A stretch of 41,357 nucleotides of DNA from Patescibacteria group bacterium. GTDB lineage: Bacteria > Patescibacteriota > Minisyncoccia > 2-02-FULL-40-12. Position numbers and translations under genes: made by a program. The stretch's first letter is position 1. Every line of letters starts with the position of its first letter. Positions 10,141 to 19,504 of this stretch are shown here, one piece after another. A model generated the notes under the pieces. That model worked only from the letters and a program-made list of their open reading frames with translations. It had not been told where the DNA came from and made no database searches. The stretch covers positions 1 through 41,357 of the forward strand of contig JBBTQD010000008.1 of the NCBI GenBank assembly GCA_038065855.1. The letters run 5' to 3'.

Positions 10141-10213
10141 TGGGCGCGTCTGGACTCGAACCAGAGACCTCGCGAATGTGAATCGCGCGTTCTAACCACT
10201 GAACTACGCGCCC
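10141..10213 (-). tRNA. tRNA-Val(CAC)
   Basis: GGGCGCG acceptor stem, anticodon arm CGCGA-TTCACAT-TCGCG, T-loop GTTCGAGTC; CCA not encoded. Confidence 0.95.
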
Positions 10214-13947: not shown

Positions 13948-14961
13948 TTATCTATAGATTACTCTATTCAAATTATGCTCGTCAAGAGTCTCTGAAAAAA
14001 TAGTCCGGCCGTCTAGAGCCGACAAGTAATACCAATACCCACTTTCTATCGGATTTAAAGCCGCATCAATGGCTCTTAATCCTGGGTTTGAAATGGGGCC
14101 GGGCGGCAAACCTTTATTTAAATAAGTATTATAAAGAGAATCAATTTTTTTATCGGCGTTTGAAAGCTGGCGGCAGCCCGACGAATCACTTTCGCTTTCA
14201 GCCATAAAAACGCATTTTATATAAACCAAAGCGGCGTCAACCTGAAGAGACACCTCTGATTCAAAGCGCTTCCACAAGATTCCAGAAACAAGCCTCATGT
14301 CTTCATCGGTTTTGACTTCTCGTTCCAGCATCGAAGCCATAATTAAAATATTCCTTAATTCTTCCGGATGCCTGCCAGCGTATTTTAAAATAACCTTTTT
14401 TCTAAAATTCAAAAGCATTTTCTCCACGGCTGAATCAACCGACCCTCTTTCAAATTTATAGGTGTCAGGGAAAAGATATCCTTCTAAATCCACTCCCTTC
14501 TTTTTGGGCAAAAATTCATAAGCGCCGCCGGAGTTGTTAAAATTCTTGGCTAATTTCAAAAAATCGCCAGAATCTTTAATGACACCGAGCTCACTAAGAG
14601 CCTCGGCGATTTCTTTGACTGTCCAGCCCTCAAAAACTTTGACTTCCAAATCAGCGCCCAGATTGAATTTTTCAAAAATTTCATTGACCGAATATTTGGG
14701 ACCAAGAATATAAAGACCCGGTTTTACGCTCGTCTCCAATCCGTTGAAAAACAAATAAGATCGGGTAATAAATTTATTCCTCACCAAACCGGCCTCGGCA
14801 AGTTTCTTTACAACCGAATTAAGGCTCTCCCCTTTCTCTATCTGAAATTCAATTTTTCCGGCTAAGACTCTCTCAATGTAAATTTCATCGATCAGATAAA
14901 AAAGCAGGCCCAGAAAAATTAAAAATGCAGTGATTATAAAATAGCCGGATACTTTTTTCAT
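13948..14961 (-). CDS. mltG: Endolytic transglycosylase MltG (YceG)
   Basis: N-terminal TM; LEGYLFPDTY, ASMLEREV and YNTY...GLPPGPISNPG motifs. Confidence 0.96.
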   Translation of the reverse strand: MKKVSGYFIITAFLIFLGLLFYLIDEIYIERVLAGKIEFQIEKGESLNSVVKKLAEAGLVRNKFITRSYLFFNGLETSVKPGLYILGPKYSVNEIFEKFNLGADLEVKVFEGWTVKEIAEALSELGVIKDSGDFLKLAKNFNNSGGAYEFLPKKKGVDLEGYLFPDTYKFERGSVDSAVEKMLLNFRKKVILKYAGRHPEELRNILIMASMLEREVKTDEDMRLVSGILWKRFESEVSLQVDAALVYIKCVFMAESESDSSGCRQLSNADKKIDSLYNTYLNKGLPPGPISNPGLRAIDAALNPIESGYWYYLSALDGRTIFSETLDEHNLNRVIYR

Positions 14962-14972
14962 CTAAATGTATT

Positions 14973-15226
14973 GAAAGCAACTCGGTATATCGTTTTCTTC
15001 TCTCAAGACTCGCAGACAAATAATCCTTCAGCGGATACCGTTCCGTAAATAAGAATTTATCTCCACTAAAATTTGGCGACAAATAAGGAACCCTCCACCC
15101 TATTTGTGATTCGCCAAATTTTCACCCGCTTCGGTTATTTGCTGCGCCCCGTAGTGAGAGCTTCGCTCTCTACTACGGGGTATCTGCTCCCTTGTAGTTC
15201 AGAAAACGATATACCTCGTAGCTTTC
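14973..15226 (+). other. Long structured hairpin element, copy A (unknown family)
   Basis: GGTATATCGTTTTCT (14984) pairs perfectly with AGAAAACGATATACC (15201-15215); apical stem AAAATTTGGCGA/TCGCCAAATTTT with a TGAT bulge. Confidence 0.7.
15146..15181. repeat. Miniature palindrome GCCCCGTAGT...ACTACGGGGT nested in hairpin copy A
   Basis: CCCCGTAGT-GAGAG-CTTCG-CTCTC-T-ACTACGGGG. Confidence 0.75.
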
Positions 15227-15239
15227 CTTTATTTTAATC

Positions 15240-15474
15240 TACACAAAAAGAAAATCGTGAGGGTATATCAATTTCTGAATCGGGTAGTCGTCTTAGGAAA
15301 TGGCCGCTACCTTTATGAAGAATGGCCGAATCACACAATCTATGGCGGAGGTACCCTGATTGTGTCGGCCATTCGAATAAAGTGGCGCGCCATTTCCAAG
15401 AAGGGCTCCCAAACGAAGAAATTGATATACCCGATTCAGATTTTCTTTTTGTGTACACTTAAGGGTAGCTTTCC
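15240..15474 (-). other. Long structured hairpin element, copy B (inverted homolog of copy A)
   Basis: 17 bp stem TACACAAAAAGAAAATC and 16 bp stem GGGTATATCAATTTCT pair perfectly with 15417-15455; apical stem GAATGGCCGA/TCGGCCATTC with a TGAT bulge on the minus strand. Confidence 0.7.
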
Positions 15475-15495
15475 ATTTTTATATTTCATTTTTAA

Positions 15496-17838
15496 TTATT
15501 GGTTCCGGCTCTTTTCTTCAAGAGGCTTAACGCCGGTTATTTTTTGAGGCGGAATCAAACGTTTTCCTGCTTTTAACTGGTTAATTTTAGCTATAAGGAT
15601 GGCATTATCCGGATTCAATTTTTCTACTTTATAAAGCTGGCTTAAGGCAGAATCAAGCTCGCCTCTTTCTTCATAAAGCAGAGCCAGATACCAGCGGGCG
15701 TTTGAAAAATCCGGGAAAATCGCAATTGCCCTCTCTAATTCGTTAAAGGATTTAGTTTTCTGACTGTCGCGGTAATAAAGAAGGCCAAGCTGAAAAATCA
15801 GATTCGCATCAGAGGGGTTAGCCTGCTTTATCAATTCAAGCTGCCCGATTGCGTCCTTGACTCTTCCCTGTCTTTCATAGACCACACCAAGATTATAAAT
15901 CGCCAAAACATAATTCGGTTTAAGCTGGACCGCTCTCTGGTAATTCTCTTCGGCCAGTTTCAAGCCAGCGGAAACTTGATTCTGGAGATCAGCCCGGTCC
16001 AATTGTCTTAAAAAATCGGCGGCGGCAAAATTGATATTTCCTATTTTCAAATACGGCTCCGGATCTTTTGGCGAAAGTTTCAAGTATTCTTCATACATCC
16101 TCTTCGCCCACTTGTCCGAGTCATCCATCACATTAATCAGATTTTCGAAAACCACAGCCCGGGTTAGCCAGTTTTGCGAGTCGCGGCCGTGCCTCCGGGT
16201 CAAATCTTCCATCAAATTGACCGCCGCGGCCGAAAAATTATTAATCCGACTGACGGCAATTTCCCGGTCAGCTTCGTTTTTAACATTGCGTAAATCAGCT
16301 ATTTCCTGATTAACTCTGACCACTATAAAATTTGCTGTTTCCCTTAAATGCATGTCTTCGTTCCGATTCAGGTTGACGGCGCTAGTCAGAAGCCTGGTCT
16401 GTTTTTCAACATCGCTTTCGCTTAATGCTTTGACAAATTGGATATTGGCCGCATAGCGAATGCCCATAAAATAAAAACTTGTCAAAACTAAAAACAGAAC
16501 GCCGACAAAAGAAACGGAGGCAAAAACAGAAAGACGAGGAGATTTTTCCAAATTAACTTCCAGTTCATCGCTGCTTTTAGACGCCGCCAGAACCATAACG
16601 CCCAACAAAAGCCAAAATGAAAAACCGATGATCAAATTAAATGGATATAAAACCCAGGCAGCAACCAAAACGGCAAATATCGGCAGGAGTTTATGATTCT
16701 TTACCCCCTCTTTAAATCCCGCGGAAAGAAGAAGCAAAAAAGCGGCGAAACCGACCAGGCCGAGTGAGATCGCCGAATTAAACGCCTCGGAGGCGGATTC
16801 TGAAAATTTAACATTCCAAAAAGTGGTGTTATTGATCGACTGAGGCTTGTGAAAATCATAGGCTAATTGGAAATTTTCAGGACCGACCCCGAAAAGTGGA
16901 TCATCGGCTAAAACTTTCTTAGCTATGTCAAAAGAAGCCCGGAAAGAAGGCGAAACCTCAACTGGAGGCTTAATTCCCAAAACGCCAGCTAGATTAAAAT
17001 TAAAAAACATAAAAACTGCCGCCAGCATGATTATGGAGGCCGGCCAGAAATAATTAGACATCCGCCAATCCGAGACTGAATTTGATACCAGGATAAAAAT
17101 CAGTCCGGAAATGGCTATAAACCAGATAACCCACCAGTTCAAAAATAAAAGCGTAAAAAACGCCAAAGATAAAGCTGGCAACATAAAATAGCCAAAAAAC
17201 CCTTTCTGAAATACTACTTTTGACAAACAAAGAATCAAAAGCGCCGCCGCCATTATCCCGAACGAATTAAATGTTCCAACGGTATTGAAAAATTTCGCCG
17301 AAATGCCGAAAGTCTTGAAAACCGGAATTCCGAAAATCTGCAAAATCCCTAAAATCAGAACTACAAAAAGAGACAAGCCGAATATGTTTAATAATTTCTG
17401 GGCATCTTCTTTGCTTGAATTTCCTGAAAAACCGAAGATATTCACAACCAGGAAGAAAAAAATGGCTAAGCCGGCGGTAGTAATGAAACTTTGGTAAAAT
17501 CCGGCGCCGAACCCGCCAAACACGCTCTGATATTTGAAATCCGAGAACAAAGAAACCAAAAGAACGGCCGCCAGAAACACCAAAACGGCGTAATTTAAAA
17601 AGCTTTTTCTGATAACCAAACGGCCGGTCCTTATTGTTTGAATAAGATACAGAATCAAACCGATGCCCGAAAGAACGAAAACCAGAAGCTGTTTGTTGAA
17701 TTCAAGAACCCCGCTGGTCCAAGGCAGGAAAAAAAGAGGAGTTGAAAACACTAAAACATAAACCAGCCACCGAGCGTATCTAAAAAGATTTGTATTGCCC
17801 AAAAAAAAACTTTTTGCTGATAGAAAATTAATATTCAC
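15496..17838 (-). CDS. O-antigen ligase (Wzy_C)-like polytopic membrane protein with C-terminal TPR repeats
   Basis: About 12 TMs; NTVGTFN, PLFGVGPENF and GLVG motifs; TPRs (AIYNLGVVY, NARWYLALLY). GTG start. Confidence 0.8.
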   Translation of the reverse strand: MNINFLSAKSFFLGNTNLFRYARWLVYVLVFSTPLFFLPWTSGVLEFNKQLLVFVLSGIGLILYLIQTIRTGRLVIRKSFLNYAVLVFLAAVLLVSLFSDFKYQSVFGGFGAGFYQSFITTAGLAIFFFLVVNIFGFSGNSSKEDAQKLLNIFGLSLFVVLILGILQIFGIPVFKTFGISAKFFNTVGTFNSFGIMAAALLILCLSKVVFQKGFFGYFMLPALSLAFFTLLFLNWWVIWFIAISGLIFILVSNSVSDWRMSNYFWPASIIMLAAVFMFFNFNLAGVLGIKPPVEVSPSFRASFDIAKKVLADDPLFGVGPENFQLAYDFHKPQSINNTTFWNVKFSESASEAFNSAISLGLVGFAAFLLLLSAGFKEGVKNHKLLPIFAVLVAAWVLYPFNLIIGFSFWLLLGVMVLAASKSSDELEVNLEKSPRLSVFASVSFVGVLFLVLTSFYFMGIRYAANIQFVKALSESDVEKQTRLLTSAVNLNRNEDMHLRETANFIVVRVNQEIADLRNVKNEADREIAVSRINNFSAAAVNLMEDLTRRHGRDSQNWLTRAVVFENLINVMDDSDKWAKRMYEEYLKLSPKDPEPYLKIGNINFAAADFLRQLDRADLQNQVSAGLKLAEENYQRAVQLKPNYVLAIYNLGVVYERQGRVKDAIGQLELIKQANPSDANLIFQLGLLYYRDSQKTKSFNELERAIAIFPDFSNARWYLALLYEERGELDSALSQLYKVEKLNPDNAILIAKINQLKAGKRLIPPQKITGVKPLEEKSRNQ

Positions 17839-18608: not shown

Positions 18609-18679
18609 CGGGAGCGCTCCGACTCGAACGGAGATTAGCGGTTTTGGAGACCGCAGTCCTGCCATTGAACGACGCTCCC
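18609..18679 (-). tRNA. tRNA-Trp(CCA)
   Basis: GGGAGCG acceptor stem, GCGGT-CTCCAAA-ACCGC anticodon arm, GTTCGAGTC T-loop; CCA not encoded. Confidence 0.95.
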
Positions 18680-18683
18680 AATC

Positions 18684-18854
18684 CTACTTTCTAGTTTCTT
18701 TATGGGTTGTATGTTTTCTACACCATTTGCAGAATTTTTTCAATTCTAACTTCTTCTCCGCTGATTTCGGGTCTTTGCCTTTGCTTTTATAGGTGTAGTA
18801 GTTGATTCTTTCACAACCACCGCACTTCATTTTGATTAATCTTTCTTGGGGCAT
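18684..18854 (-). CDS. rpmG: 50S ribosomal protein L33 (Zn-binding C+ type)
   Basis: Below the track cutoff. My translation: MPQERLIKMKCGGCERINYYTYKSKGKDPKSAEKKLELKKFCKWCRKHTTHKETRK; located next to tRNA-Trp. Confidence 0.95.
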   Translation of the reverse strand: MPQERLIKMKCGGCERINYYTYKSKGKDPKSAEKKLELKKFCKWCRKHTTHKETRK

Positions 18855-18870
18855 GAATTGGCACTACTAA

Positions 18871-18942
18871 AGCCAGCGGTGGGAATTGAACCCACGACCT
18901 ACTCCCTACCATGGAGTTGCTCTGCCTCTGAGCTACGCTGGC
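18871..18942 (-). tRNA. tRNA-Thr(GGT)
   Basis: GCCAGCG acceptor stem, ACTCC-ATGGTAG-GGAGT anticodon arm, GTTCAATTC T-loop. Confidence 0.95.
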
Positions 18943-18968
18943 AATCATATTGTCTAATATTTTTAAAA

Positions 18969-19421
18969 CATATGAATCTATACAACCAAGTTAGAACCTA
19001 TTTATAGTGAGCTTGTCGCCCATTCGATTCAACTCAGGGCGACCCTGAACGAAGTTGAACGGGTCGAAACTATTTATGGTGAACTTGTTGAATCTATTTA
19101 TAGTGAGCTTGTCGAATCTACTTTAGCAAAAAATCTGACGATTGAGAAGTGGCCGCGCCTGCGGCGCGGCTCTCTGGGACGGGAAGCGGCTCCGCTGTTC
19201 CTCGTTAGAAGAATTAGCAAAACAGAAAAATTATCTGTTCATTCTTTCAGAAAAATCAGGCGCGCAAAATCTTAATCATTAAGAGATAATTTTTCTGTTT
19301 TGGTTGGCCACCGCTTTGCGGCGGCTTGGCGGAGCCGCTGGGTGGGATTGCCGTCCTGCGGGCGGAATTAGTCCGTGTCTCGCTGGAAATGAGTTCGAGC
19401 GGAGTTGTATAAAAGCATATG
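18969..19421. mobile_element. Non-coding element bounded by 35 bp imperfect inverted repeats, abutting the tRNA-Tyr 3' end
   Basis: CATATG-N4-TATACAAC-N7-GAAC-N2-ATTT at 18969-19003 and inverted at 19387-19421 (25/35 identical); internal long hairpin and tandem repeats. Confidence 0.5.
18998..19117. repeat. Tandem ~24 bp REP-like repeats (CTATTTATrGTGArCTTGTyGAA); the first copy is interrupted by a composite palindrome
   Basis: Copies start at 18998, 19070 and 19094; CGCCC...GGGCG and CGACCC...GGGTCG palindromes lie inside the first copy. Confidence 0.75.
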
Positions 19422-19503
19422 GGTGCGGAGGGACTCGAACCCCCGAAGTCCTAACGGACGCGTGGTCTACAGCCACGAGCAATTGCCACTATGCGACGCA
19501 CCC
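19420..19503 (-). tRNA. tRNA-Tyr(GTA)
   Basis: GGGTGCG acceptor stem, CGTGG-CTGTAGA-CCACG anticodon arm, long variable arm GTCC-GTTA-GGAC, T-loop GTTCGAGTC. Confidence 0.95.
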
Positions 19504-19504
19504 A

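Follow-up and report, generated by a model that had tools for sequence, protein, structure and literature searches.

What occupies the 534-nt gap between the gene of a TPR protein and mltG in a Patescibacteria group bacterium (GenBank assembly GCA_038065855.1), where neighbouring genes normally lie close together (median spacer 22 nt for 505 spacers of the genome, from crude open reading frame (ORF) calls)? The window analysed, the whole stretch of 41,357 nt, is contig C8 of the source genome G000, which comprises 514,712 bases in 32 contigs and is 97.8% complete. G001 to G007 denote the other genomes of its family f1, and f2, f3 and f4 denote other families. The gap holds two long imperfect hairpins, copy A and copy B, here termed rods. 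It is probable, at roughly three chances in four, that A and B each form half of a single composite copy of a hairpin repeat family, dispersed and non-coding, and that this copy was inserted in this lineage. The object is a palindromic repeat of a new family, resembling repetitive extragenic palindromic (REP) sequences, bacterial interspersed mosaic elements (BIMEs) and miniature inverted-repeat transposable elements (MITEs), rather than one new RNA gene. This repeat family is limited to a single Parcubacteria family, apart from distant relatives in a neighbouring family. Its members are multi-copy and lineage-restricted, with filled and empty sites, decay, nesting, recent copies in a relative and compensatory change in the stems.

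Two rods in a block missing from relatives

The initial annotation had described two diverged, inverted long hairpins upstream of mltG. Direct reading, inverted-repeat search and folding confirmed them, and every motif of the series given as common to A and B was found in its place when the sequence was read. The stem sequences of the two copies differ with pairing kept, as had been claimed. The features of the rods are as follows.

14973–15226, plus strand: copy A, an A-type rod (fold z −10.65; paralogues on C7, C21 and C22)
14973–14981, plus strand: left arm of the A outer terminal inverted repeat, GAAAGCAAC, which pairs with GTAGCTTTC at 15218–15226 (inverted-repeat search)
14984–15000, plus strand: A 5' basal motif GGTATATCGTTTTCTTC (sequence read)
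14984–15000, plus strand: A basal box GGTATATC-GT-TTTCTTC, with its partner TTCAGAAA-AC-GATATACC at 15198–15215 (kept in 7 of 7 full copies aligned)
15068–15122, plus strand: A apical hairpin, with stem, CGA-CA motif, C-rich loop and bulge (sequence; inverted-repeat search)
15068–15079/15111–15122, plus strand: A apical stem AAAATTTGGCGA/TCGCCAAATTTT (sequence; inverted-repeat search)
15141–15179, plus strand: nested 39-nt mini hairpin of A (blastn gap against C7:14503–14717; contig joint 15140 to 15180)
15198–15226, plus strand: A 3' basal box TTCAGAAAACGATATACC (15198–15215) and outer repeat GTAGCTTTC (15218–15226) (sequence; inverted-repeat search)
15227–15232, no strand: short spacer between A and B (sequence)
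15233–15462, minus strand: copy B including an extra outer stem, 15233–15256 with 15439–15462 (inverted-repeat search; fold z −12.39)
15261–15432, minus strand: core of copy B, a B-type rod (inverted-repeat search; covariance-model match of 177.6 bits; row of the 35-row alignment)
15466–15474, minus strand, read 15474–15466: B terminal motif GAAAGCTAC (sequence; repeat search)
15431–15415, minus strand: B basal motif GGTATATCAATTTCTTC (sequence read)
15320–15374, minus strand: B apical hairpin, with stem GAATGGCCGA/TCGGCCATTC, loop AGGGTACCTCCGCCATA and bulge TGAT (inverted-repeat search)
15279–15262, minus strand: B 3' basal motif TTCAGAAATTGATATACC (sequence read)

The apical loop of A, AGGAACCCTCCACCC, spans 15086–15100 and includes CCTCC at 15092–15096; the 4-nt bulge TGAT follows at 15107–15110. 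On the plus strand the apical arms of B lie at 15320–15329 and 15365–15374, and TGAT precedes TCGG. The extra outer stem of B has no counterpart in A, and no complementary partner of GAAAGCTAC was found on the opposite side of B. The mini hairpin of A is perfect, CCCCGTAGTGAGAGC-TTC-GCTCTCTACTACGGGG, and is missing from the 95%-identical paralogue at C7:14503–14717. Its interpretation as a widespread REP was dropped, as G000 alone, out of 301 genomes of the class, contained the pattern (up to 3 mismatches). Look-alikes of 50 nt with 82–87% identity were seen by BLAST in G009, a genome of another family.

Copy A (14965–15235, plus strand) folds at −101.2 kcal/mol, as compared with −51.8 ± 4.6 for 200 shuffles (z −10.65), and copy B (15225–15485, minus strand) at −111.4 kcal/mol, as compared with −56.1 ± 4.5 (z −12.39); in neither case did any of the 200 shuffles fold as well. 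The ORFs on the rods encode 74–96 aa only and were judged spurious from the ORF list. In a scan of the window with Rfam 15, four tRNAs alone reached the gathering score and none of them lies at the rods. At E values up to 10 the rod region gave chance matches of the miRNA type only, the best being a plant miRNA with 27.5 bits against a cut-off of 75. The claim that the rods match no tRNA, tmRNA, RNase P, signal recognition particle (SRP) RNA or riboswitch therefore stands at the Rfam gathering thresholds, and the same result covers 6S RNA and, where Rfam includes them, bridge and omega RNAs. The four tRNA genes of the window are on the minus strand (10141–10213, 18609–18679, 18871–18942 and 19420–19503), three of them inside an 823-nt 'spacer' at 18682–19504.

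The junction between the two neighbouring genes was compared with that in relatives, using the following features.

13948–14961, minus strand: mltG (YceG-like), the downstream neighbour (Pfam PF02618, E 4.6e-65; ORF list)
15496–17838, minus strand: gene of a 780-aa membrane/TPR protein, the upstream neighbour (Pfam TPR families; ORF list)
14956–14961, minus strand: copy 1 of a flanking 6-bp direct repeat, ATGAAA, which contains the mltG ATG (sequence; contig joint 14955 to 15484)
15484–15489, minus strand: copy 2 of the flanking repeat, ATGAAA (sequence; G001 junction alignment; contig joint)
14962–15489, no strand: 528-bp block, not present in relatives at the orthologous junction (alignment to G001, G002, G003 and G006; contigs of runs X1, X4 and X6)

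In G001, G002, G003 and G006 the TPR gene and mltG are adjacent, 0 to ~40 nt apart as compared with 534 nt in G000, and the block with A and B is absent from the junction in all four relatives that keep it; mltG of G004 is diverged and not informative for the junction. G001 belongs to the same genus as G000, with mltG 89–90% identical at the amino acid level. The difference between the two is the 528-bp block, with ATGAAA (minus-strand reading) at both bounds, 14956–14961 and 15484–15489; the start codon of mltG falls within the first of these copies. The frame of the block is ambiguous by 6 bp, 14956–15483 being equally possible. The same 528 bp are skipped in contigs from three groundwater runs, where 14955 is followed directly by 15484, with six letters that fit either side, at depths of 25.3 (X1), 9.4 (X4) and 5.9 (X6). 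Because other differences lie nearby, these contigs are attributed to a co-occurring relative and not to the same strain. With four outgroups empty, a gain in the G000 lineage is the parsimonious reading.

That the rods are chance palindromes or an artefact of assembly is a practically negligible prospect. Only the general risk of repeat misassembly in metagenome bins speaks for it, and against it stand the z-scores, the presence of the element in seven genomes and its recovery from independent runs of at least two studies, in contigs that also cover the A–B junction.

Copies, doublets and covarying stems

Searches of G000 with A and B by blastn revealed at least seven full copies plus fragments, including the following beyond the window.

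C7:14503–14717: copy 95% identical to A (blastn; fold)
C21:8782–9025: further copy (blastn; fold)
C22:14990–15163: further copy (blastn; fold)
C22:15783–15961: further copy (blastn; fold)
C27:23048–23171: further copy (blastn; fold)
C7:33561–33616: partial copy, 3' half (blastn)
C7:4102–4151 and C7:52140–52169: fragments (blastn)

Every full copy in G000 folds as a rod, and the units, 170–290 nt long, follow a common plan. It consists of an outer GAAAGC...GCTTTC repeat, a basal box GGTATAnC-nn-TTTCTTC ... TTCAGAAA-nn-GnTATACC, and an apical hairpin with CGA-CA, the C-rich loop CCTCCACC and a bulge of 3–4 nt. The interiors are of two kinds, A-type with CTCAAGACTCGCAGACAAATAA and B-type with GGGAGCCCTTCTTGGAAATGG, and a homologous helix covaries between them (AAATAA/TTATTT as compared with AAATGG/CCATTT). 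A and B both have the letters GTAG in their outer repeat GTAGCTTTC; other copies do not conserve them, as in GTCGCTTTC on C7. Again by crude ORF calls, the distance left between the repeats and the gene ends in their spacers is −6 to +21 nt.

When 14960–15480 was searched by BLAST in 41 genomes of the order, counting G000, matches appeared in six of the seven other f1 genomes, with 7–22 per relative of 0.4–0.7 Mb and none in G004; in other families, 3 of 33 genomes matched, in pieces of 30–55 nt only. A search of 105 genomes with a covariance model of 35 B-type rows followed. In this check, of the kind proposed in the initial annotation for candidate-phyla-radiation (CPR) genomes, further homologues were found, in 6/7 genomes of f1 (all but G004) and 2/9 of f4 (G016 and G031), with 0/62 in f2 and 0/26 in f3. 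The f4 matches are full length and, at 33–43 bits, weaker than those in f1. They retain the basal stem and the apical hairpin, GCCGACAAA ... CCUCCA ... UUAUUA-CCGGC, the latter being the most widely conserved part of the element. An exact 26-letter B-type pattern occurred at 27 loci in 5 assemblies out of 185,579 species genomes, all five titled Parcubacteria or Patescibacteria group (two titled Saccharibacteria), and at none in viral contigs. In the groundwater runs the two rods have a summed contig depth ~10–15 times that of the flanks, which indicates that the repeat family is abundant in those communities. A full-text literature search brought up no account of repeats of this kind in these bacteria, as far as the texts retrieved by it go.

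Compensatory change was assessed in an alignment of 35 B-type rows (33 distinct, one locus entered twice), for which RNAalifold gave a consensus of 38 pairs. Standard pairs fill 96.4% of the stem cells, as compared with 87.1% in shuffles. Changes on both sides were observed in 17 of the 38 pairs, in 133 cells where 38 were expected, and 0 of 500 shuffles scored as high; since the sequences are related, this figure cannot be read as a probability. Three types alternate at several pairs (GC 13, AU 9 and UA 6, for instance), and pairing falls to 35–54% when the partner is slid by 1–3 columns. The unpaired nucleotides are strongly conserved as well. The selection on structure proposed from A and B alone is borne out by these stems. 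An Rfam match, a lack of homologues and a lack of covariation, the outcomes named in the initial annotation as counting against its proposal, were each looked for and did not occur.

The pairing of two rods recurs in G003 (268,777 bases), where nhmmer found 12 B-type copies. An inverted A-like rod, starting CAGAGCCGCAGGGTA...TTCTGAAC, lies within ~20–110 nt on the 3' side of 10 of these, as counted by reading the printed sequences (a regular expression caught five). This layout of B followed by inverted A is that of the minus strand of the window, and in nine of the 12 cases the outer face of B lies at most 90 nt from a gene. Nesting is also seen. At C21:9137–9361 and C12:1726–1962 a member of a second repeat family (described below) lies inside B-type basal boxes, and two basal boxes stand in series at C22:15751–15993.

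Orientation and strand bear on whether the rods act as RNA. With respect to neighbouring transcription, six of the 12 B-type copies of G003 are oriented with it and six against it. In G000, four copies lie directly after a stop codon, all co-oriented with that upstream gene. Raw folding energy favours the strand opposite to that given in the initial annotation in 9/9, 10/10 and 33/33 copies of three sets. In the consensus folds, G-U cells outnumber A-C cells on that strand (48 vs 3 for A-type and 86 vs 9 for B-type), while a comparison of the B-type by columns gives G-U 14 vs 11. Shuffles of the opposite strand also fold 7–14 kcal better, with z-scores alike on both strands in 10 copies. A preferred active strand was considered and dropped, since composition-matched shuffles remove the difference and the z-scores of the 10 copies are not consistently different.

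These data allow the first alternative to be weighed, namely that the rods are multi-copy functional structured RNAs, cis elements of mRNAs or small RNAs, which spread and were then kept by selection for the RNA. In the cis version they would control processing, stability or translation through the C-rich apical loop or, on the other strand, a loop containing GGAGG. The strong compensatory change, the invariant unpaired nucleotides, the retention of the apical hairpin even in f4, the co-oriented copies after stop codons and the G-U excess are in its favour, and copies in operons, such as that between rplO and secY, are necessarily transcribed. The block is nevertheless missing at the junction in four of four relatives, fragments, nested copies and remnants are common, orientation in G003 is 6:6, and the strand preference is gone after control for composition. 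No Rfam family matches, and a promoter and terminator scan of 14800–15650 gave one promoter-like and one terminator-like site, neither above shuffles. This explanation is consequently judged fairly unlikely. The 'novel ncRNA class' of the initial annotation, taken as an RNA gene, is not supported, as the locus is absent from the relatives' junction and copies are gained, lost, truncated, nested and, in G003, evenly divided in orientation. Its exposed CCUCC loop, described as resembling an anti-Shine–Dalgarno sequence, is real as a conserved C-rich loop, while nothing analysed links that loop to ribosome binding.

Turnover and the search for a mobiliser

Turnover was surveyed by comparing 20-kb stretches of G000 with G001 and reading the junctions. 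One C7 fragment sits in an insertion of ~150 nt between genes that overlap in G001. Conversely, G000 has 7 nt at the place of the G001 copy L008:1412–1695, and 5 nt at that of another G001 fragment. At two sites the repeat type found in a given spacer differs between these congeners. One is the rplO–secY spacer of the ribosomal-protein operon, which in G000 (C27:22598–23200; L006:1599–2200) is 600 nt long with a B-type copy and a copy of the second family, and in G001 (L034) is 1042 nt long with an A-type copy and more; at the other, the B-type site on C22 of G000, G001 has an A-type. In G003, two B copies at different loci are 100% identical, the identity starting at AGAAAGC and ending at GCTTTCT, with differing partner rods, and two A-type copies (L039/L060) are likewise identical. 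Such identical copies at different loci indicate that single rods are still being copied. These recent copies are single rods with different partners, though doublets are otherwise regular.

Several observations weigh against an inserted mobile repeat. Two of the 'empty' sites hold a short remnant in the relative, for example AGAAATTGGCTATACCC in G001 opposite C7:14493–15340, so that those differences are losses and not gains. Different types in the same spacer could reflect replacement by recombination instead of transposition. A clean target duplication was seen at one site only, that of the 528-bp block (ATGAAA), the other filled and empty sites being too diverged for one to be read, and no flanking duplication is visible at the two identical B copies of G003. 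Candidate mobilisers are also scarce: Y1_Tnp (PF01797), rve, DDE_Tnp_1 and the TnpB zinc ribbon gave no match in the 97.8%-complete G000, and IS110 none in the eight genomes of f1. Within the family Y1_Tnp occurs only in G001, one of six repeat-bearing relatives, and in the repeat-free G004. Resolvase genes, present in 28 of 41 genomes, are uncorrelated with the repeats, G006 having repeats without a resolvase. Finally, the strong conservation of unpaired bases and of an apical hairpin common to two families is compatible with a functional RNA as well.

None of the transposase families searched yielded a cognate enzyme (IS630, IS256, IS1595 and others were not searched), and a crude scan for half-sites of the basal box in G000 and 269 kb of G003 revealed no gene bracketed by them. 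The Y1 HUH transposase-like genes of the family have frames of 226–245 aa, one in G001 (L104, C7:18046–18387) and two copies in G004 (L105 and L106). The only reverse transcriptase gene of G000 (L076, C16:1670–2278; 354-aa frame, PF00078 at 90 bits) adjoins an imperfect direct repeat pair of 127 nt (C16:550–676 and 949–1075), and the locus looks like part of a diversity-generating retroelement. Two paralogous genes for large serine recombinases (C10:3139–4620 and C3:1–1425), which belong to the largest repeat cluster of G000 (22 regions), are probably integrated mobile DNA.

For an inserted repeat, the course of events may be drawn as follows. After the split from the congener, the 528-bp composite would have entered the interval of a few bases that separated the TPR gene from mltG, leaving a putative 6-bp target duplication (ATGAAA). 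Single rods would be the self-copying units and would insert by preference into intergenic spacers and next to, or within, rods already present, giving rise to doublets and nested forms. A trans-acting protein that recognises the folded single strand may be what maintains the rod with its internal loops, bulge and C-rich/G-rich apical loop. The form recognised would be single-stranded DNA (ssDNA) during mobilisation, in a logic like that of REP sequences and their REP-associated tyrosine transposases (RAYTs), and the protein would belong to none of the transposase families searched. Copies inside operons must be transcribed, with a probable side effect on mRNA processing or stability.

A more far-reaching suggestion, quite doubtful at present, is that the rods are the recognition structures of an undescribed mobilisation system, strand-specific ssDNA or RNA hairpins that copy themselves in ultra-small CPR genomes without Y1, DDE, IS110 or TnpB, and that rods resident in operons serve in addition as modules of RNA processing or translation control. 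The CGA-CA/bulge/C-rich-loop hairpin would then be read by an unrecognised protein, possibly one related to the host or to episymbiosis.

The initial annotation had offered folded DNA as its other option, like REPINs (paired inverted REPs) or the attC sites of integrons. The REPIN-like form of this proposal came closer than an RNA gene did, while the link to a RAYT that defines REPINs fails here. As for recombination sites, the rods might be folded ssDNA substrates of a tyrosine recombinase, either attC-like or exploiting Xer. Imperfect hairpins with a conserved extrahelical bulge of 3–4 nt beside a conserved CGA/TCG step fit such a function, as does the adjacency of a related family of ~180 nt to a small three-copy gene cassette in two of three cases. 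The copies, however, are not arranged in cassette arrays but lie alone or in doublets between housekeeping genes (mltG; rplO/secY), their 170–290 nt exceed the 57–141 nt of attC sites, and site-specific recombination does not produce duplications such as the 6-bp one that flanks one insertion. Recombination sites are accordingly a very improbable explanation.

The ~180-nt family, AAAGCCCGCAGGGTATAG...CTGTACCCGAGAGGCTTT, is not a plain rod and has no Rfam match. Its eight copies in G000 are as follows.

C27:21145–21345 (L006:145–345)
C27:22625–22825 (L006:1625–1825)
C7:9706–9896
C12:1744–1919
C21:9159–9315
C22:11438–11613
C31:217–394
C31:3942–4168

The C7 copy is replaced by a 24-nt remnant in G001. 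The consensus fold of six copies has G-U 31 vs A-C 1 on one strand (−65.4 vs −49.4 kcal/mol). On C27, secY is bracketed by two inverted copies; a composite element comprising secY and both copies was rejected, as the flanks are two separate self-folding copies. The cassette consists of two small genes (~84–99 aa and ~130 aa), with three copies (L030:3196–3832 on C31, C22:10657–11368 and C29:7573–8248) that are 68–73% identical in DNA, the repeats of the second family being directly adjacent in two. The ~130-aa protein has an ALIDTGFN motif reminiscent of retropepsin-like proteases; Pfam gave no match for the two-gene cassette at E 0.01, and none for a 119-aa ORF that adjoins the C7 copy. A small hairpin module, GTCTCCAATTCTGATTGGAGAC-GGAATCT and variants, was noted beside copies of the main families at C21:9066–9115, C27:22930–22990, C7:4059–4100 and C22:15725–15750.

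Significance and comparison with known systems

CPR genomes are among the most compact known, and a lineage of this kind tolerates and turns over selfish hairpin blocks of 170–530 bp, even between rplO and secY. The repeats mark very recent genome change between co-occurring groundwater strains and provide natural long RNA/DNA rods with well-supported covariation. They also bear on the old question, posed by elements of the ERIC (enterobacterial repetitive intergenic consensus), Correia and RPE (Rickettsia palindromic element) types, of how palindromic repeats spread without a recognisable transposase. For annotation they are a caution that covariation alone is insufficient to call such rods ncRNA genes.

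Among structured RNAs, 6S RNA, SRP RNA and bacterial Y RNA are likewise long irregular hairpins with conserved internal loops. The rods differ in that no covariance model matched them up to E 10, they occur in tens of copies per genome in addition to fragments, and orthologous sites lack the locus. With attC sites they share imperfect pairing, and function via a folded strand with extrahelical bases is conceivable; they differ in being much longer, lying between housekeeping genes outside cassette arrays and having one 6-bp duplication (intI was not searched for).

REP units measure ~20–40 nt and have a GTAG or CGTC head; a BIME is made of Y and Z REPs, a REPIN of two inverted REPs, and a RAYT is a Y1 HUH gene. 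Like these, the rods are extragenic imperfect palindromes with many copies per genome and compensatory stem change, found in operon spacers and after stop codons, and their recurrent unit is two diverged subtypes inverted around a short linker. The rods differ in their unit length of 170–290 nt, in their conserved apical hairpin and in their several fixed internal loops. G000 and five of six repeat-bearing relatives lack the RAYT gene (Y1 HUH, PF01797), and the repeat-free G004 has it.

With classical MITEs copy A shares terminal inverted repeats (GAAAGCAAC/GTAGCTTTC and GGTATATC/GATATACC), and the rods are, as MITEs are, small, without coding capacity and present in many copies; no parent insertion sequence with the same ends was found (IS630, IS256, IS1595 and the like were not searched). 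The MITE-like repeats of other bacteria, namely ERIC or intergenic repeat units (IRU), the Correia elements of Neisseria, bcr1 of Bacillus and RPE, are likewise non-coding, 100–300 bp long and folded as rods with terminal inverted repeats. They too differ in presence between close relatives and insert between genes of compact genomes, and a short flanking duplication was seen at one rod insertion. ERIC and RPE are not known to have a cognate transposase, and among the families searched none was found for the rods. No sequence relation to these repeats is claimed. The rods are distinguished from them by modularity, with a shared basal box and different interiors, by nesting and regular doublets, and by their host, a CPR bacterium of ~0.5 Mb.

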